A stretch of 7,093 bases of DNA, taken from IMG/VR virus record IMGVR_UViG_2563366937_000008; one strand, written 5' to 3'. The stretch is from a virus (taxonomy: Duplodnaviria; Heunggongvirae; Uroviricota; Caudoviricetes). Positions 1 through 7,093 of this stretch are shown one piece after another. Positions within the stretch are counted from its first letter, which is position 1, and every line of letters begins with the position of its first letter. The position numbers and the translations under genes were made by a program. The notes beneath the pieces were generated by a model. That model worked only from the letters and a program-made list of their open reading frames with translations, searched no databases and was not told the origin of the DNA.

Positions 1-147
1 CACACCCTGCACCCATTCATGCAAAATCAACGTGTCCCCGCGCTCATAATTACGATCTTTTTTCCGAAACTCTGCGCGTTTCTTTCCTTCCAGTACAAGG
101 TCGAAATATTTTGCGTGCAGCTTTACCTCGTGAATTTTTGCCATCAT
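1..147 (-). CDS. N-terminal fragment of a small protein immediately downstream of A, possibly ASCH/PUA-like; runs off the window edge
   Basis: My own translation of the minus strand from the ATG at 147..145 (or 144..142) gives MMAKIHEVKLHAKYFDLVLEGKKRAEFRKKDRNYERGDTLILHEWVQGV with no stop before position 1. GGAG sits 5 nt upstream of the ATG, and the start overlaps the A stop codon (ACATGATGG). The pattern hydrophobic-x-x-L-x-G-K-K-x-x-E-x-R ... G-D-x-L resembles ASCH-type small domains; this assignment is tentative. It is absent from the ORF track because no stop lies in the window. Confidence 0.45.
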   Translation of the reverse strand, partial: MMAKIHEVKLHAKYFDLVLEGKKRAEFRKKDRNYERGDTLILHEWVQGV

Positions 148-2429
148 GTCCACTCCATTACTGTTGAGAATCCCGGCCACTCATCAGCGACCGGATACGT
201 GAATTTTTTCCCGTCATAATTTACGGTTGCTCCACGCGCCAGCGCCTCAAGTTCCCATCGCTGAGGCCTGATACCGTTCTGAGCAAGGTCAACGCGGATA
301 CGGGTGATCTGCAATCGTTCAGACCTGGTCAGTCTGGCAGATGGTGCAATTTCATGCGGTTTTAACGGGCTTCCGTTTCTTTGCTGACGGTTTGGCGTTC
401 TCATGTCGTATTTTAATGCGCCCCTGAGCGCCCTCACGACCTCCGGTTCATTCCATTCAATAACACCGTCATCAACCAGATTAAGCACTGCTGCGGCGTG
501 CTCAGAAGGTGTGGGAGCCGGTAACGAAGTATCACCACCGGTGAGCTTTCCACAGTTATTGACAGGACTCCGAGGCGCGGCGATGCCGCTTTTTAAAGTC
601 AGAGGCTCAACGACCGGAACTTTCGGCACAATGCGCCAGTCCGTCGTTCTGGTGATATGAATATGACGCGCGCCGAGATGCGGCGCGTAAATGCCGACCA
701 CTCTCTCGACTTCTTCCTCGTACTCGTTAACTTCATCCGACGGACTACGGGCGACCCTGACAGTCTGACAATCGCGCGGGACATTTGCCCCACCCTGCGC
801 GCTGATATACAACGCAAAATCACCACTGTCTGCGGCGGCGCGTGCAGCCTCGACGCGCTCGTCAAACTCATCAGCAATGCTGACGCCGCGAGGCAATTTG
901 CGTAGTTCACGGTAAGCCCCCATTGTCGGCAGACCAACCGTTTTAAATTGTGGGATGCGCCACGTTGACGCCCATGCGGTAACAGCCGCAGCAGTGTCTT
1001 TCAGCGGTCTGCCGGTATCGTTATCGAGCTGACCATCCAGTGCATAGCCATCGATGTTTTTTGAGATGTATTTCGCGATATACCCCGCAGCACCGCCCTG
1101 GTTAAGGTGTTTTGCCTGAAAACGGTTTCGCGCGGCTCCTCTTTCGTCGCCATCCTCTTTGAGCGCATAGCGACGCATGATTTCGATAATCTGGTTACGC
1201 TGGCGTGGATTACAAAAAAGCATCATATGCCAGTGCGGCGTTCCGTCGTGGTGTGGCTCGACGACACGCAAACCGTAGACCTGTAAATCATTATCTTTGA
1301 ATGCCGTGCGCATCAGGCTCCAGATATGGCAGAGATAACGCTGCGCATCCTTTGGATTAAATGCCTCATCGTTCCAGCCGTGATTTAGCTGGACGGTTTT
1401 ACTTTCGCCTTTTCCGACCTGACGTGTCGGGTGATACTTTGAAGGCGCGGTAAGCGTGATAAACATCCCCACATCACCCTCTGCGGCGGCGTAACGCTCA
1501 ATACCGGCAATGGTGTTCATCAGCTCCATCCGGCGAATTTCAGGATTAGAAATACTGCCCATCACCTTACTGATAAGGTCGATGCGCTCGCCGGTTTCCC
1601 TGTTTTCAAGGTCACACGATTTAAGAAATTCCAGATTTGCCTGGCGGCGTGCACGCACATCACGAATGGCATGTTTACTGGCATAAGGAGAACGGTCTTT
1701 ATTCACCTCCCCGACAGCAATCAGTAACGCCTCATGCCAGCGCATACGCTGGCCTTTGAGCTGATGAGTCCACCACTCATCGTTAAACAGACGGGCAATG
1801 GCAGAATATGCCTGCCTCGTGGTCATCTGTCCTTTACGGTATTTTTTCCAGTAAAGCGGGGAAATATTGAAAGCACGTGCAGCGCCAGCAACATGACCAT
1901 AGAGGTGAGCCTGCGCCTCATCCGTAAACAGCGATTCTTTTTCGCCATGTGCATCCACCCAGGCATCGCTGAGTTCCTCATACATCATGAAAAGCTGCGA
2001 TGAGATACGGGCGGCAAACTTTTTCAGCTCCTTGTCATTCATTCCCGGCAGGCGCGCATAGTGGTCACGCTCTGCCAGAAACAGCAACGACGCGTCGGTG
2101 TTCATTTCATGGCGCTGATTCACACGCTCAATGCGCGGCCATAAACGACGCTGAAAAGTGGATGTGAGGAAATAAAACCCGTGCACCGGGCTTTTATTGC
2201 GCCGGATGTAGTCATAGCGTGAAGTAAACAGCGAGCGCAAAAAGTAAGGCAGGCGGTTAATCGTGGATAAAACACCTTGCATCTGACGCATCTCGTCACG
2301 TGTAAGGGGTCTTTCGCGCCCGACGGCCTCGCGTGGCGCGTTCCATGCATAAGCACCGGTAAACATCTTACCGGTGCCTGCGGCAAATGCTGACGGAGGG
2401 ACAAAACGCCCGGAGGCTTTAACGGCCAT
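144..2429 (-). CDS. A: Replication initiation protein A, a rolling-circle HUH-type endonuclease (761 aa from the first ATG)
   Basis: Track ORF 144..2471 begins at a TTG (plus-strand caa at 2469..2471). The first in-frame ATG is at 2429..2427 (MAVKASGRF...), giving 761 aa. HUH motif PHWHMML (HWH at nt 1227..1235) and paired tyrosines in YIAKYISK (Tyr codons at 1080..1082 and 1068..1070) are hallmarks of the phiX174 A / P2 A initiator family. Stop TGA at 146..144. Confidence 0.9.
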   Translation of the reverse strand: MAVKASGRFVPPSAFAAGTGKMFTGAYAWNAPREAVGRERPLTRDEMRQMQGVLSTINRLPYFLRSLFTSRYDYIRRNKSPVHGFYFLTSTFQRRLWPRIERVNQRHEMNTDASLLFLAERDHYARLPGMNDKELKKFAARISSQLFMMYEELSDAWVDAHGEKESLFTDEAQAHLYGHVAGAARAFNISPLYWKKYRKGQMTTRQAYSAIARLFNDEWWTHQLKGQRMRWHEALLIAVGEVNKDRSPYASKHAIRDVRARRQANLEFLKSCDLENRETGERIDLISKVMGSISNPEIRRMELMNTIAGIERYAAAEGDVGMFITLTAPSKYHPTRQVGKGESKTVQLNHGWNDEAFNPKDAQRYLCHIWSLMRTAFKDNDLQVYGLRVVEPHHDGTPHWHMMLFCNPRQRNQIIEIMRRYALKEDGDERGAARNRFQAKHLNQGGAAGYIAKYISKNIDGYALDGQLDNDTGRPLKDTAAAVTAWASTWRIPQFKTVGLPTMGAYRELRKLPRGVSIADEFDERVEAARAAADSGDFALYISAQGGANVPRDCQTVRVARSPSDEVNEYEEEVERVVGIYAPHLGARHIHITRTTDWRIVPKVPVVEPLTLKSGIAAPRSPVNNCGKLTGGDTSLPAPTPSEHAAAVLNLVDDGVIEWNEPEVVRALRGALKYDMRTPNRQQRNGSPLKPHEIAPSARLTRSERLQITRIRVDLAQNGIRPQRWELEALARGATVNYDGKKFTYPVADEWPGFSTVMEWT

Positions 2430-2694
2430 ATGAGCCAAAAGCCTCTGAACAACGCTTGCTGAGTTGCTCAACCTGCACGTTTAAATCAGCAAAAGACTTT
2501 GCGCTTCCGGTCAGAATATCGTGATGCATCAGGCCTGAAACGAGCTGGCTTAATTTCGGGTAATAACCAACCACCGCCAGCCATTCCTGACCGGCGTTTT
2601 TACCGCTTTCCGCTCTCTTTTTCTCGTGGAGAATAAACTGAAAGCTGTCACTGGTAACGACATAACGTTCGCCAATTTCAATACGAATACTCAT
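2419..2694 (-). CDS. Hypothetical small protein (91 aa), last small ORF before A
   Basis: ATG at 2694..2692 with GGAGA about 6 nt upstream. The start overlaps the upstream ORF stop (ATGA). Its 3' end overlaps the A start region by 11 nt. No recognisable motif. Confidence 0.6.
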   Translation of the reverse strand: MSIRIEIGERYVVTSDSFQFILHEKKRAESGKNAGQEWLAVVGYYPKLSQLVSGLMHHDILTGSAKSFADLNVQVEQLSKRCSEAFGSYGR

Positions 2695-2915
2695 GCCGTT
2701 CTCCGGTAATGTTTGTTTTTTGCTTCAAAGACTGACTGACAGGAAACACAACGCGTGGCTGACGGGTAAGCCGCACGACGGGCAGCAGGTATTGGCGCGT
2801 CACACTCTTCGCAAACCAGCGCAGAAGCACCGCAATGTTTTACCCTTGCCGCGTTAATCTGGCGCTCCAGTAATTCAGCCTGTTGTTCCTGAATAAAATC
2901 TACGTTGTCCGGCAT
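2691..2915 (-). CDS. TraR/DksA-family C4 zinc-finger protein (74 aa)
   Basis: Two CxxC pairs 17 residues apart (C35-E-E-C38 and C56-V-S-C59) preceded by an acidic N-terminal helix (DNVDFIQEQQAELLERQ), the typical phage TraR-like layout. ATG at 2915..2913 with AAGGA upstream; start overlaps the upstream ORF stop (TAATG). Confidence 0.75.
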   Translation of the reverse strand: MPDNVDFIQEQQAELLERQINAARVKHCGASALVCEECDAPIPAARRAAYPSATRCVSCQSVFEAKNKHYRRTA

Positions 2916-3217
2916 TACCAGTTCCTTTTGTCGTTCAGTTTTTTAAATTCATCAGCGCAATAGCTGGCGATTTCTGTCGTTAATTTCGTCAGTTCATCCA
3001 CGGAGGAAATTTGCTTGTGAAATACAGCGCGTTTAACAAGTAAATTGACCACATCAGACAGGAGGTTTAATTCACTCTGATAAATCGCGATAACAGATTC
3101 AGTTATTTCGCGTTTTTCTTTATCAAGACCAAGTTGAATAAGAGACAAATCGCCATTTTTCATAACGGCGATTTTTAAGGCGTTATTCAGTAATACAACT
3201 GCACGAGAACAGAACAT
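2915..3217 (-). CDS. Hypothetical acidic helical protein (100 aa from the ATG at 3217), AT-rich
   Basis: Track ORF 2915..3220 starts at a TTG. The adjacent ATG at 3217..3215 has GGAGG 9 nt upstream and overlaps the upstream stop by 1 nt (TGATG). By manual count the coding sequence is about 37% GC over 2941..3180, against about 55% in a sampled A segment. An alternative internal start at 3163 (82 aa) lacks an SD. Confidence 0.55.
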   Translation of the reverse strand: MFCSRAVVLLNNALKIAVMKNGDLSLIQLGLDKEKREITESVIAIYQSELNLLSDVVNLLVKRAVFHKQISSVDELTKLTTEIASYCADEFKKLNDKRNW

Positions 3218-3441
3218 CAAAGCACCTCCCCGCGAGACAATCCGATATTGTGAAATTTTTCCGACTCCTGACTGAGCAGCTCGACTATCTCCACGCGGGA
3301 TAACTCCGCCTTTGTGATGTGGCGAATCATGGCATCAAGATGAGAAGAAAAGCGCGTCGCAGCGTCGGCCTGTGCTTCGGTTCTGGCCTGTTGCAGCAGT
3401 AATGCGTATATACCGCACTGATTTTCAGAAACTGTATGCAT
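3217..3441 (-). CDS. Hypothetical small protein (74 aa from the ATG at 3441), first ORF downstream of B
   Basis: Track ORF 3217..3474 starts at a TTG with no SD. The in-frame ATG at 3441..3439 is preceded by GGAGA with 5-6 nt spacing (MHTVSENQ...). Stop TGA at 3219..3217. Confidence 0.5.
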
Positions 3442-3504
3442 AACTTTCTCCAGGCAAAAAGAAGCCCCGCACAATTAAGTGCGTTAAAAACTCTGGTTAA
3501 TTAC

Positions 3505-4005
3505 TTAATGCAGATATTGCTCCGGTTTTACCGACGTCAGAATTGTCGGTGCATACTCAAACAGACTGAATAATTCACGTAATGCACGGAATAAAGCATC
3601 ACGCCAGTAACATGACTCTTCATTAATTCGCCAGTATGGCTGGTTGAATTCTTTTTCAGTCAATCCGGCATGCATAAATAAAGTACGACGCTGACTGACT
3701 GTTAAAAAACTAATATATGCATACTCACTTGCGCCAACCTGACGGCGTTTTGAGAATGCACCACGCAATTCATCAATTGCACATACCAGTCGTTCACGTT
3801 CGACGTCGTTCATTTCTTCAAAACACATCGTTGCGTGACGCTGTTTTAACTGAGCATGGAAGCAAACCGTTAACCGTTCGCGCTCCATCATCTGATTATA
3901 ATAATCACATGTATCCTGCCAGCGAGGAACGGCAAGATGCTTACCAATTATCCGGCGCATAGCTGCTGGCTGTTTTTCAACGAGATTGAGCGTCATCACT
4001 GTCAT
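3505..4005 (-). CDS. B: Replication protein B (166 aa), P2 B-like
   Basis: Track ORF 3505..4011 is 168 aa. The ATG at 4005..4003 (MTVMTLNL...) has GGAGG 8 nt upstream and gives 166 aa, the size I recall for P2 B. It sits between cox and A in the leftward early operon. Start overlaps the upstream small ORF stop (ATGA). Confidence 0.7.
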   Translation of the reverse strand: MTVMTLNLVEKQPAAMRRIIGKHLAVPRWQDTCDYYNQMMERERLTVCFHAQLKQRHATMCFEEMNDVERERLVCAIDELRGAFSKRRQVGASEYAYISFLTVSQRRTLFMHAGLTEKEFNQPYWRINEESCYWRDALFRALRELFSLFEYAPTILTSVKPEQYLH

Positions 4006-4172
4006 TTCCATACCCTCCGGCTTTTCAGAAAGGTCAGAGCCTTTTTTAACGGACTCTGTTTTTTGGTGCGGATAATGATTCCCTTACGCCCCTTACCGTG
4101 GGTGATGGTGAAGTCAATCGCCCTGGGGCTTTCGTTACGCAGTAACTGAGCAATACAACGAGGCTCATTCAT
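4002..4172 (-). CDS. Small basic protein (56 aa) between cox and B
   Basis: Track ORF 4002..4196 starts at a GTG inside cox. The ATG at 4172..4170 has a strong SD (AAGGAG, 6-nt spacer) that begins right at the cox stop. Product MNEPRCIAQLLRNESPRAIDFTITHGKGRKGIIIRTKKQSPLKKALTFLKSRRVWK is very K/R-rich at the C-terminus. Confidence 0.45.
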   Translation of the reverse strand: MNEPRCIAQLLRNESPRAIDFTITHGKGRKGIIIRTKKQSPLKKALTFLKSRRVWK

Positions 4173-4182
4173 ACGGTTCTCC

Positions 4183-4458
4183 TTAACGTGGTTCACCGAG
4201 ACCTAACCACATCAACCAGCCGTCACGAATCTCTTTAGGGCGGCTTTCATAAGCCAGTTTTAGTCCGTTATTCCATGCCGGAAGGTATACCCAATATTCA
4301 CCTGCACGACCTGAAGCTGATTGTGGATCGGTCATATCAATTACAGGCAGCTTTCCTTTATCGATCATCCGACGAACCGCTCCTGTCGATTTTCCTATTA
4401 GTTTTGCGAACTCCTGATAAGGAATCGCATCAGTCATGAGTGTTACTTGCTTGCTCAT
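4183..4458 (-). CDS. cox: Cox-like protein (91 aa): repressor of Pc and excision directionality factor in P2
   Basis: ATG at 4458..4456, stop TAA at 4185..4183. First gene downstream of the leftward Pe promoter and divergent from C. Contains an HTH-like segment (YQEFAKLIGKSTGAVRRMIDKGKLPVI). Size and N-terminal sequence match my memory of P2 Cox. Confidence 0.85.
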   Translation of the reverse strand: MSKQVTLMTDAIPYQEFAKLIGKSTGAVRRMIDKGKLPVIDMTDPQSASGRAGEYWVYLPAWNNGLKLAYESRPKEIRDGWLMWLGLGEPR

Positions 4459-4539
4459 GTCGTCCTCTAGCCCTCATGAATTGCGTTTAATGTCTTATAA
4501 TGCCTTTTAGTGCCCACATCCAAGCACTAAACAATCTAC

Positions 4540-4569
4540 ATCTAAACTAAATACTATTGAGATCTAAAC
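4540..4569. promoter_or_regulatory. Operator: two 8-bp direct-repeat half-sites (GTTTAGAT on the minus strand) spaced 22 bp, flanking the Pe -10
   Basis: Plus-strand atctaaac at 4540..4547 and 4562..4569; a partial third copy (GTAGAT) lies at 4534..4539. Direct repeats flanking the -10 of Pe are the described binding architecture of P2 C repressor. Confidence 0.6.
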
Positions 4570-4579
4570 ACCATGTCAA
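4551..4579 (-). promoter_or_regulatory. Early promoter Pe (leftward, drives cox-B-A operon)
   Basis: Minus-strand TTGACA (4579..4574), a 17-nt spacer, then TAGTAT (4556..4551). The -35 overlaps the C start codon. Transcription is convergent with the C transcript, as in the P2 face-to-face Pe/Pc arrangement. Confidence 0.7.
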
Positions 4580-4872
4580 ACACGATAAGCGAGAAGATAG
4601 TCTTAATGCGAAAATCAGAGTATTTGAGCAGACAACAACTTGCTGATTTAACAGGGGTTCCGTATGGCACGCTGAGTTACTATGAAAGTGGTCGTTCAAC
4701 ACCTCCAACAGATGTCATGATGAACATCCTGCAGACCCCACAATTCACCAAATACACTTTATGGTTCATGACCAATCAGATCGCTCCTGAGTCCGGGCAA
4801 ATTGCGCCCGCTCTCGCACACTTTGGGCAAAACGAAACAACGTCGCCCCACTCCGGTCAAAAGACTGGTTAA
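4573..4872 (+). CDS. C: Immunity repressor C (99 aa)
   Basis: ATG at 4573, stop TAA at 4870..4872. HTH-like segment LSRQQLADLTGVPYGTLSYYESG. Located between the switch region and int, on the same strand as int. Size and sequence match my memory of P2 C. Confidence 0.85.
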   Translation: MSNTISEKIVLMRKSEYLSRQQLADLTGVPYGTLSYYESGRSTPPTDVMMNILQTPQFTKYTLWFMTNQIAPESGQIAPALAHFGQNETTSPHSGQKTG

Positions 4873-4987
4873 CAATTCATCGTGAATATATTCATCACAA
4901 GTGCCTACTATTGGTGGCTAAATTTCAGCCACCACGAAAAAAGCGATTAGTAGTCGCAAAAAAACACACCACTCGGAGGGTTTTCTG

Positions 4988-6001
4988 ATGGCAATCAAAA
5001 AACTCGATGATGGTCGATATGAAGTGGACATCCGCCCTACTGGACGTAATGGAAAACGCATCCGTAGGAAGTTTGATAAGAAAAGCGAAGCTGTCGCTTT
5101 CGAGAAATACACGTTGTACAACCACCACAATAAAGAATGGCTATCAAAACCAACAGACAAGCGACGTCTGTCGGAGCTGACACAGATCTGGTGGGATTTA
5201 AAGGGTAAACACGAAGAGCATGGGAAATCTAATCTTGGAAAAATTGAAATCTTCACAAAAATAACGAATGACCCATGCGCATTTCAAATTACGAAATCGC
5301 TTATCAGCCAGTACTGCGCCACCCGAAGAAGTCAGGGTATTAAACCTTCGAGTATCAATCGTGATTTAACATGTATTAGCGGCATGTTTACAGCCCTGAT
5401 TGAAGCGGAGTTATTCTTTGGTGAGCACCCTATCAGAGGGACAAAAAGGCTTAAGGAGGAAAAACCAGAAACAGGCTATCTAACACAGGAAGAAATTGCC
5501 TTACTGCTTGCAGCACTTGACGGCGACAATAAAAAGATTGCGATTCTTTGCCTGAGTACAGGAGCACGTTGGGGAGAAGCAGCTCGTTTGAAAGCAGAAA
5601 ATATCATCCATAACCGCGTCACGTTTGTTAAAACGAAAACAAACAAACCACGCACCGTCCCGATCTCAGAGGCTGTTGCCAAAATGATCGCGGATAACAA
5701 ACGAGGTTTTTTATTCCCTGATGCTGATTACCCTCGCTTCAGACGAACAATGAAAGCAATAAAACCGGATTTGCCAATGGGGCAAGCCACACATGCACTA
5801 AGGCACAGCTTTGCCACTCATTTCATGATTAATGGAGGAAGTATTATCACGCTACAACGGATACTAGGTCACACGCGGATTGAGCAAACTATGGTTTACG
5901 CTCATTTTGCGCCAGAGTACCTTCAGGACGCCATTTCTCTTAATCCGCTAAGAGGTGGTACTGAGGCCGAGAGTGTCCACACAGTGTCCACAGTAGAGTA
6001 A
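4988..6001 (+). CDS. int: Tyrosine integrase (337 aa), P2 Int-like
   Basis: ATG at 4988 with GGAGG 8 nt upstream. Tyrosine-recombinase motifs are present: Arg in LSTGARWGEAARL, the H-x-x-R box in HALRHSFATH, and the catalytic Tyr in QTMVYAHF. The 3' end lies about 80 bp from the att core. Confidence 0.92.
   Translation: MAIKKLDDGRYEVDIRPTGRNGKRIRRKFDKKSEAVAFEKYTLYNHHNKEWLSKPTDKRRLSELTQIWWDLKGKHEEHGKSNLGKIEIFTKITNDPCAFQITKSLISQYCATRRSQGIKPSSINRDLTCISGMFTALIEAELFFGEHPIRGTKRLKEEKPETGYLTQEEIALLLAALDGDNKKIAILCLSTGARWGEAARLKAENIIHNRVTFVKTKTNKPRTVPISEAVAKMIADNKRGFLFPDADYPRFRRTMKAIKPDLPMGQATHALRHSFATHFMINGGSIITLQRILGHTRIEQTMVYAHFAPEYLQDAISLNPLRGGTEAESVHTVSTVE
5972..5992. repeat. Tandem 10-bp direct repeat AGTGTCCACA x2 (11-bp periodicity) inside the 3' end of int; candidate integrase arm-type binding sites
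   Basis: Perfect copies at 5972..5981 and 5983..5992, both within the int coding sequence (encoding SVHTVSTV). The position about 90-110 bp from the core, direct orientation and helical-turn spacing are typical of arm sites. Assignment is by analogy, not verified. Confidence 0.5.
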
Positions 6002-6080
6002 CGTTTAAGGGCTTTCAGTGGTAATTTATGCCGCTCAAACCCGCATTGTACCGTTGAAAGCCCCTACTGGTGACACCCTA

Positions 6081-6107
6081 AATCTCCCTTACACGGGCTT
6101 ATTTTTT
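6081..6107. repeat. Attachment-site core (prophage/host junction), 27 bp: AATCTCCCTTACACGGGCTTATTTTTT
   Basis: This is the reverse complement of the P2 att core as I recall it (AAAAAATAAGCCCGTGTAAGGGAGATT), and is identical to the 3' terminator end of the enterobacterial sRNA CyaR (RyeE) as I recall it. Sequence to the left is phage (int); sequence to the right leads into host yegS. The body of cyaR is not in this window. Confidence 0.8.
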
Positions 6108-6193
6108 TGTACCACGACTTTCATCCTGTTCTGACACCGCCTTTTCTTTTCTGCTCTACACTATCTACAGACCAATCATAAAGGCATACGACC

Positions 6194-7093
6194 ATGGCAG
6201 ATTTCCCCGCCAGCTTACTGATTCTTAACGGCAAAAGTACTGACAATGAAACATTACGCGAAGCAATTATGCTGCTGCGTGAGGAAGGAATGACTATCCA
6301 TGTGCGGGTTACCTGGGAGAAAGGTGATGCTGCGCGTTTTGTTGAGGAAGCCCGCCAGCTTGGCGTGGCAACGGTGATTGCCGGCGGTGGCGATGGCACT
6401 ATTAATGAAGTCTCCACGGCGTTGATTCAGTGTGAGGGCAATGAAATTCCTGCTTTGGGAATATTGCCGCTAGGTACAGCGAACGATTTTGCCACCAGTG
6501 TGGGTATTCCTGAGGCGCTGGATAAGGCACTTAAACTGGCAATTGCTGGTAACGCTATTGCAATTGATATGGCACAGGTCAACAAACAAACCTGTTTTAT
6601 CAACATGGCAACGGGCGGATTTGGAACACGCATCACCACCGAAACGCCAGAGAAATTAAAAGCCGCGCTGGGTGGCGTCTCTTACATCATTCACGGCTTA
6701 ATGCGCATGGATACGCTGCAACCGGATCGCTGTGAAATCCGTGGTGAAAATTTTCACTGGCAAGGCGATGCGCTGGTTATTGGTATTGGCAACGGGCGTC
6801 AGGCTGGTGGCGGTCAACAACTGTGCCCAAATGCGCTGATCAATGATGGTTTGTTACAACTGCGTATTTTCACCGGCGATGAAATTCTTCCAGCTCTCTT
6901 TTCAACCTTAAAACCTGACGAAGAAAATCCGAATATTATTGAAGGCGCTTCGGCATGGTTCGAAATACAAGCGCCTCATGAAATCACCTTTAATCTTGAT
7001 GGAGAACCGTTAAGCGGGCAACGTTTTCATATCGAAATACTTCCGGCAGCATTGCGTTGCCGGCTACCACCAGATTGCCCGTTATTGCGTTAA
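6194..7093 (+). CDS. yegS: Lipid kinase YegS (299 aa), host gene
   Basis: Complete ORF, ATG at 6194 and TAA at 7091..7093. Carries the GGDGT signature ([13 protein letters not shown]) of the DAGK catalytic domain. The sequence is recognisable as enterobacterial YegS. Confidence 0.9.

Follow-up and report, generated by a model that had tools for sequence, protein, structure and literature searches.

The window analysed here (the whole stretch of 7,093 nucleotides) matches phage P2 with 100% nucleotide identity at positions 2300–3600 (1301 nt) and with 99.95% identity at positions 1–6107, where there are three mismatches in 6.1 kb and none within 2300–3600. It is a P2 prophage copy, and its four small ORFs are exactly orf80, orf81, orf82 and orf83 of P2. 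All lie on the minus strand, as do the genes that flank them. Gene B (3505–4005, 166 aa), a replication protein in the P2 annotation, is upstream of the block; orf80 (3217–3441, 74 aa, 100% identical to P2), orf81 (2915–3217, 100 aa), orf82 (2691–2915, 74 aa) and orf83 (2419–2694, 91 aa) follow, and gene A (144–2429, 761 aa), the rolling-circle replication initiator, is directly downstream, as given by the P2 annotation and the ORF list. According to the reference list of PMC9239242, the gene A region of P2 was sequenced by Liu, Saha and Haggård-Ljungquist in 1993. The P2 GenBank annotation (AF063097 / NC_001895) shows the identical order and CDS lengths of 225, 303, 225 and 276 nt for orf80, orf81, orf82 and orf83, identical to those in the window. 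The first-pass annotation had taken the sizes to be unlike those of P2 orf80–83; since the window is P2 and the gene sizes match, that claim was wrong.

Between B and orf80 is a gap of 63 nt containing a terminator-like hairpin (3456–3483, minus strand; feature 26980–27007 of the P2 record), which matches a pattern scan and is labelled 'putative rho-independent terminator' in the P2 record; its fold is weak (z = -1.08). The genes then overlap by 1 nt at orf80/orf81 (TGATG), by 1 nt at orf81/orf82 (TAATG) and by 4 nt at orf82/orf83 (ATGA), so that the coordinates and overlaps first reported for the ORFs of 74, 100, 74 and 91 aa are confirmed, and the overlap of orf83 with the ATG of gene A is 11 nt. 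Ahead of each start codon is a Shine-Dalgarno-like motif, namely GGAGA, GGGAGGTG, AAGGAA or GGAGAA; the overlapping stops and starts, with a ribosome-binding site for each gene, indicate that translation of orf80–orf83 is linked. All four are accessory genes, sited between the replication genes B and A, and their transcription is from the early promoter Pe. They are real genes rather than chance ORFs, as each passes its Pfam gathering threshold and all four remain intact in the related IMG/VR loci, about 75–80 of them, at piN/piS values of 0.007–0.36. That sample was chosen for an identical Orf82, so the orf82 value is biased and the others may be too. A search of the window for structured RNA gave no Rfam match, and a hairpin inside orf81 was rejected as a conserved element because its alleles show one-sided changes only and zero compensatory pairs. 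None of the four proteins matched a PADLOC defence-system profile at E ≤ 1.

Orf82, a TraR homologue, is the one member of the block with a demonstrated mechanism, that of an RNA polymerase regulator. It matches PF01258 with 43.6 bits (cut-off 24.9, E = 3e-11) and the NCBIfam model TIGR02419 with 78.3 bits (cut-off 59.7), and matches by sequence the F-plasmid TraR found in the RNA polymerase complexes 5W1S and 6N57. A C4 zinc finger of the dksA/traR type (C35, C38, C55 and C58) is visible in the sequence as CxxC-x16-CxxC. Of the N-terminal DxxDxA motif, which in this family extends to the RNA polymerase active site, D3 and D6 are present and position 8 is Ile instead of Ala, a missing A8 that was also remarked on by the authors of PMC9239242. 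The four ORFs had been described as having no assigned function, which is outdated for Orf82: a study of 2022 (PMC9239242) measured how it binds RNA polymerase and affects transcription. In that work, carried out in vitro and by plasmid expression rather than during P2 infection, P2 Orf82 bound RNA polymerase and competed for it with DksA, inhibited rrnB P1 with an IC50 of 250 nM and complemented a dksA deletion; the same paper cites growth arrest on Orf82 overexpression. Orf82 inserts, as F-plasmid TraR does, into the secondary channel of the host RNA polymerase, and it is reported to act on initiation at ribosomal RNA promoters without ppGpp (PMC9239242); shutting these promoters down would divert host resources to the phage. 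The suggestion that small early proteins of this block are host-takeover factors holds for Orf82, and Orf80, Orf81 and Orf83 may be anti-defence factors.

Orf81 and Orf83 both belong to DUF5405 (PF17399, cut-off 21.6), with 119.5 and 50 bits, respectively, and each covers nearly the whole 88-position model. BLASTP gave no alignment between the two; hhalign of Orf83 against the Orf81 family gave 87% probability and E = 3.7e-6 over 85 columns at 13% identity. The AlphaFold2 models (pLDDT 87.4 for Orf81 and 82.6 for Orf83) both show strand-strand-strand-strand-helix-helix, with the elements at matching positions, and on these results together the two proteins are remote, very divergent homologues sharing one predicted fold. 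The fold appears to be a beta-meander of four strands with a helical hairpin after it, and to be specific to phages: every match returned by BFVD was an uncharacterised phage protein, 85–108 aa long, and the hosts of these phages are many. Orf83 is the widespread form, matched by tblastn in 177 phage records that span several virus families, whereas only 20 relatives of Orf81 were found among 1.84 billion cluster representatives, and a profile search for distant Orf81 relatives had only close ones among the matches listed. In lambdoid, Schitoviridae and Herelleviridae phages, DUF5405 homologues lie in an early or accessory region and at a distance from replication initiators. At about 90 aa, the DUF5405 fold is widespread and confined to phages, and the two P2 copies flank the TraR homologue.

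Sequence and profile searches of the PDB with Orf80, Orf81, Orf83 and their family profiles gave matches at chance level only, and we rejected oligoribonuclease (E = 0.01 over 38 residues), DR_1245 (E = 0.02) and galectin-8 as such. In the literature on DUF5405, DUF2732 and orf80–83 we found no functional study of Orf80, Orf81 or Orf83. Pfam, NCBIfam and sequence properties gave no enzymatic, DNA-binding or transmembrane signature for Orf81 or Orf83, and their pI is near neutral. On these grounds, we infer that both would be small and soluble and would bind a protein of the host or the phage; we do not regard them as enzymes, as replication initiators that bind DNA or as membrane proteins. As a separate observation, an apparent natural Orf81–Orf82 fusion is occasionally seen, in which an extra A in an A6 run near the end of orf81 gives cluster P0212 (74 members); we regard this fusion as a weak hint of a functional link between the two proteins.

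Orf80 matches DUF2732 (PF10809) with 40 bits (cut-off 25), and its profile search found no solved relative. The distribution of the four genes was compared in 41 prophage loci, P2-like and 186-like, of genomes that each represent a species; among these loci, which were retrieved by an Orf83 alignment query because the Orf81 alignment lacks any conserved stretch, orf80 is present in 41 of 41, orf82 in 28 and orf81 in 15. The absences of orf81 cover all 14 of the 186-type loci and 12 of the 27 P2-type loci, and all four combinations of presence and absence of orf81 and orf82 occur. The B–A interval of relatives holds other cargo as well: an RNase T-type exonuclease, a PAPS-reductase-domain protein, a C5 DNA methylase and DUF3850. 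The constant frame of the module in P2-like and 186-like prophages is thus orf80 with orf83, whereas orf81 and orf82 are cassettes, each optional independently of the other, in an interval that takes other cargo too; orf81 is limited to P2-type prophages of Enterobacterales. Within the P2 group, the region is carried by 75 of 75 matching phage records. About 1600 E. coli genomes have orf81 and about 1600 have orf83, which indicates that the two travel together, and the module is found in about 30% of complete E. coli genomes, with the four genes essentially always together. The proposal that the B–A interval varies among P2-like phages is borne out, though not for the reason given there, across genera (the 41 loci) but not within the P2 group (the 75 records).

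The most variable gene of the block is orf81. Among the IMG/VR loci, with the Orf82-based choice of sample already described, it is near full length in 79 of 80, its piN/piS of 0.355 is the highest in the operon, and its piN is 0.061 against 0.006–0.007 in orf80 and orf83, about tenfold higher. In E. coli, 37% of orf81 records fall below 95% nucleotide identity, compared with about 0% for orf83. The orf81 alleles include a 100-aa class and a 96-aa class. These diversity values argue that orf81 is functional, under purifying selection and faster-evolving than its neighbours. They would also fit a protein that counters host defence and is locked in an arms race with a host immune system, which would explain both the patchy distribution of orf81 and its high allelic diversity. 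Such a role would be in keeping with the excess of amino-acid diversity, the many allelic classes in E. coli, the optional status of the gene among the 41 loci, and the C5 DNA methylase and PAPS-reductase-domain gene in the interval of relatives, which are typical anti-restriction-type cargo. We consider it unlikely, however, because none of the four quarters of the gene reaches a piN/piS of 1 (0.27–0.60) and the variation is evenly spread, so positive selection in part of orf81 is rejected; because orf81 is essentially fixed in E. coli P2-type prophages; and because synonymous diversity is raised too (0.17), from which we conclude that the variation comes in large part from old alleles that recombine, and not from positive selection. 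Quite unlikely, in our judgement, is a further proposal, that both DUF5405 copies act on one host target, or on RNA polymerase with Orf82, and that Orf81 is the specificity-variable copy; were it true, Orf81 would be tracking how a host factor or a defence system varies.

The families of Orf81 and Orf83, PHROG 265 and PHROG 154, are labelled 'replication initiation protein', and RefSeq repeats the PHROG label for Orf81. Taken at face value, the label would make Orf81 and/or Orf83 auxiliaries of replication, acting at the P2 origin together with gpA or gpB, and the position of both genes between B and A, with orf83 overlapping the start of A and usually abutting it, would fit. We judge this very unlikely. 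Searches of Pfam, NCBIfam and PDB folds gave no replication-initiator, nickase or helicase-loader domain for either protein, and none of the DUF5405 homologues in HK446, phiEt88, FSL SP-058 and Bacillus phage Riley is beside a replication initiator, their neighbours being recombination, nucleotide-metabolism or unknown early genes. Moreover, orf81 is missing from 26 of the 41 related prophage loci that retain A, and several lineages have 0.2–1 kb of unrelated cargo between orf83 and A. The P2 mini-chromosome work of Liu et al. in 1993 and the studies of phage 186 replication are said to have assigned replication solely to A and ori. In one source the label reads 'Relication initiation protein', which points to copying between annotations rather than to experiment. 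The database label is unsupported for both families, and we flag it as such on the present comparison.

The low GC content of orf81 noted in the first-pass annotation (about 37%, below that of A) was confirmed by measurement: orf81 has 37.3%, A has 53.3%, and the figure over the phage part of the window is 48.1%. The orf81 value is the lowest in that part, where only 0.2% of 303-nt windows are equally low. The deficit sits mainly at codon position 2 (GC2 0.277); GC3, at 0.376, is the same as in B (0.383) and cox (0.370), so that a windowed GC analysis of 2915–3217 does show a deviation but synonymous-site composition is no outlier. As the deficit is not at synonymous sites, GC alone does not show a foreign origin. 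In other genera, too, the GC3 of orf81 homologues is similar to that of neighbouring genes, and in Scandinavium it is 0.51–0.55. The earlier argument for independent acquisition stands insofar as orf81 looks like a cassette gained or lost on its own, but its compositional part is weak, given the ordinary GC3. That orf81 is a recent gain from an AT-rich donor, with low GC as the signature of transfer, accords with its having the lowest GC and with its absence from 186-type and many P2-type prophages, but is highly improbable given a GC3 that matches B and cox and, in Scandinavium, resembles its neighbours, an outlying GC2 that reflects amino-acid content, a family shared with the resident orf83, and homologues at the same position in prophages of Escherichia, Kosakonia, Scandinavium, Pseudescherichia, Buttiauxella and Serratia, which point to long residence in the lineage or possibly to repeated transfer between prophages.

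The reading we favour, and think reasonably probable, is that the block consists of four known P2 accessory genes in which Orf82 is the regulator, Orf81 and Orf83 are divergent DUF5405 protein binders, orf80 and orf83 are the frame, and orf81 and orf82 are optional. These are already annotated genes of a model phage, ordinary overall, and the new comparative detail is modest. The shared fold of Orf81 and Orf83, the constancy of orf80 and orf83 and the optional nature of orf81 and orf82 nevertheless narrow the choice of useful experiments, and the reach of the module in E. coli is the reason that the block matters.

Compared with known systems, the interval is without differences from that of P2 (AF063097 / NC_001895), in sequence, sizes, order and overlaps alike. 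The 186-like phages (Eganvirus, such as EtG and SW9) likewise have homologues of orf80, orf82 and orf83 in the order DUF2732 – TraR – DUF5405 – A, directly upstream of A; unlike P2, they have no orf81 and no B, and their junction inserts are an RNase T exonuclease, a 276-aa protein and a methylase. With the RNA polymerase secondary-channel regulators F-plasmid TraR and lambda Orf73, Orf82 has in common the C4 zinc finger, D3 and D6; it differs in lacking A8 of the DxxDxA motif (I8) and in reaching half-inhibition at about five times more protein than TraR (250 nM versus about 50 nM).

The four small ORFs between B and A are exactly the orf80–83 set of bacteriophage P2 (AF063097 / NC_001895), since window 2300–3600 is 100% identical to that phage and the P2 record lists orf80 (225 nt), orf81 (303 nt), orf82 (225 nt) and orf83 (276 nt) at the same sizes and in the same order. 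The first-pass annotation had held that the sizes do not match the P2 set, which proved false. All four are on the minus strand (orf80: 3217–3441, 74 aa; orf81: 2915–3217, 100 aa; orf82: 2691–2915, 74 aa; orf83: 2419–2694, 91 aa), as are A (144–2429, 761 aa), B (3505–4005, 166 aa), orf78 (4002–4172, 56 aa) and cox (4183–4458, 91 aa); C, int and the host yegS are on the plus strand. The TGATG and TAATG junctions (1-nt overlap each) and the ATGA junction (4-nt overlap) are found in the sequence as that annotation described, orf83 overlaps the ATG of A by 11 nt, and every start codon of the four has a Shine-Dalgarno-like motif of its own. Window 1–6107 as a whole has 3 mismatches to P2 (99.95% identity), and the match stops at the attP core. 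For the yegS flank (6108–7093), identity to any of 5,426 complete E. coli genomes reaches only about 90%, so the host probably belongs to a non-coli Escherichia species or is closely related to one, with a nearly reference-identical P2 beside yegS.

The P2 record, mapped to the window, annotates a ‘putative rho-independent terminator’ at 3456–3483, between B and orf80, which is a weak hairpin of 5 bp. Read mechanically, the orf80 ORF reaches a TTG at 3474 (minus strand, 3441–3474), giving 85 aa and crossing this terminator-like hairpin, and the 11-residue extension peptide can also be read in Kosakonia and Scandinavium loci. Because it is the annotated ATG at 3441 that has a good ribosome-binding site, the likeness probably reflects conserved hairpin and Shine-Dalgarno DNA, not coding sequence.

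The interval had also been proposed to vary between P2-like phages. This holds across genera, but not among close relatives and not for the reason given. The whole region is present at at least 90% identity in all 75 of 75 matching phage records, tblastn finds Orf80 in 76 records and Orf81 in 75, and orf81 and orf83 occur in 1601 and 1613, respectively, of 5426 complete E. coli genomes. For the wider comparison, species-representative genomes were scanned with an Orf83 profile (46 loci, 39 usable) and two 186-like phage loci (EtG and SW9) were added, giving 41 loci whose ORFs were classified with profiles built in this analysis. Presence of orf83 in 41/41 is by design, as it was the query; orf80 accompanies it in all 41. 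Between orf80 and A, the P2-type loci (with B) carry all four genes (13 loci), orf80 and orf83 (10), orf80, orf81 and orf83 (2) or orf80, orf82 and orf83 (2), and the 186-type loci (without B) carry orf80, orf82 and orf83 (13) or orf80 and orf83 (1). Thus orf81 (15/41, P2-type prophages only) and orf82 (28/41) are optional independently of each other. Other cargo at the junctions comprises an RNase T-type exonuclease, a PAPS-reductase-domain protein, a C5 DNA methylase, DUF3850 and several proteins without a Pfam match. In several 186-like prophages, a conserved 276-aa protein, also without a Pfam match, lies between the orf83 homologue and A (3783–4613 in locus L004; equivalent positions in L110, L113 and L116). 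It may belong to a DNA-modification function, because the PAPS-reductase-domain protein or the C5 DNA methylase uses the same slot in other lineages.

The suggestion that orf81 is unusually AT-rich is borne out: at 37.3% GC it ranks lowest among the 303-nt stretches of the window's phage part, a level matched by only 0.2% of them. Its phyletic distribution is consistent with gain or loss as a cassette inside the P2-type lineage, but the GC argument for a foreign origin is weak, since orf81 has the same GC3 (0.376) as B (0.383) and cox (0.370), it is GC2 (0.277) that stands out, which reflects amino-acid content, and Scandinavium homologues have GC3 of 0.51–0.55, similar to their neighbours. 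An exhaustive HMMER search of 1.84 billion cluster representatives found 20 Orf81 relatives; nearly all of those assigned to an organism come from Enterobacterales (Escherichia, Citrobacter, Scandinavium, Pseudescherichia, Edaphovirga, Buttiauxella and Serratia), and one is in a metagenome bin labelled Acinetobacter.

Among 80 IMG/VR loci chosen for identical or nearly identical Orf82, orf81 has the highest piN/piS of the operon (0.355; piN 0.061, piS 0.17), compared with 0.136 for orf80 (0.0069, 0.05) and 0.185 for orf83 (0.0058, 0.03). This diversity is consistent with long-standing allele classes that recombine and are less constrained, and the many Orf81 protein clusters in E. coli, at 77–97% identity, agree with such classes. 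Clear positive selection does not fit, as piN/piS is below 1 overall and in each quarter of the gene (0.27–0.60).

Within the orf81 coding sequence, there is a perfect 11-bp stem with a 6-nt loop (3147–3174, minus strand: AAATCGCCGTT-ATGAAA-AATGGCGATTT), which as RNA folds at -13.8 kcal/mol (z = -4.06; 0/200 shuffles fold as well). Alleles differ on one side of the stem only (G-C to G-U, or to an A·C mismatch), and in one allele class the stem is missing entirely, so the alleles do not support conservation of the structure. Near the 3′ end of orf81, an A6 run (TTTAAAAAACTG, about 2930–2945) would, with one added A (equivalent to a -1 shift), place orf81 in frame with orf82. Exactly such an Orf81–Orf82 fusion makes up a 175-aa protein cluster (P0212; 74 member sequences, 10 contigs), which could be either an artefact of homopolymer sequencing or a true allele; no A7 run was seen among the loci compared, of which only 11 carry the exact motif.

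Orf81 and Orf83 both pass the Pfam gathering cut-off for DUF5405 (PF17399; 119.5 and 50 bits, cut-off 21.6), and BLASTP sees no similarity between them. When the two families are compared profile to profile, the probability is 87% (E = 3.7e-6, 85 columns), and the AlphaFold2 models (pLDDT 87.4 and 82.6) both place four strands before two helices at matching positions. By profiles and predicted folds, the two proteins are thus distant homologues. PHROGs and RefSeq name both families ‘replication initiation protein’, a label for which we found no support: Pfam and NCBIfam profile searches detect no replication domain in either protein, and in unrelated phages Orf83 homologues do not adjoin replication initiators. 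They lie after abc2 in the leftward early operon of lambdoid HK446, among accessory genes flanked by the recombination genes and xis/int in phiEt88, downstream of a dUTPase among early genes mostly of unknown function in schitovirus FSL SP-058, and next to dihydrofolate reductase in Bacillus phage Riley. One source misspells the label as ‘Relication initiation protein’, which points to copied annotation. Our best inference is that both DUF5405 proteins are small accessory factors that bind other proteins and do not serve in replication, with Orf81 the optional, faster-evolving copy.

All four proteins are near-neutral and soluble, and none matches a PADLOC defence profile. Profile searches assign Orf80 to DUF2732 (PF10809) and Orf82 to the dksA/traR zinc finger and, above its cut-off, to a TraR subfamily model; F-plasmid TraR, whose structure in complex with RNA polymerase is solved, aligns with Orf82. 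The earlier statement that the ORFs have no assigned function is outdated for Orf82, since the P2 protein was assayed directly by Gopalkrishnan et al. 2022 (PMC9239242). Orf82 complements a dksA deletion and competes with DksA for RNA polymerase, and in the absence of ppGpp it inhibits rrnB P1 (IC50, 250 nM); according to the authors, it lacks A8 of the DxxDxA motif (PMC9239242). The same paper attributes to Liu et al. 1993 a growth arrest upon Orf82 overexpression. The mechanism of Orf82 is therefore experimentally supported. The four ORFs are genes already annotated in a model phage; the comparative details are modest additions to the known P2 genes.
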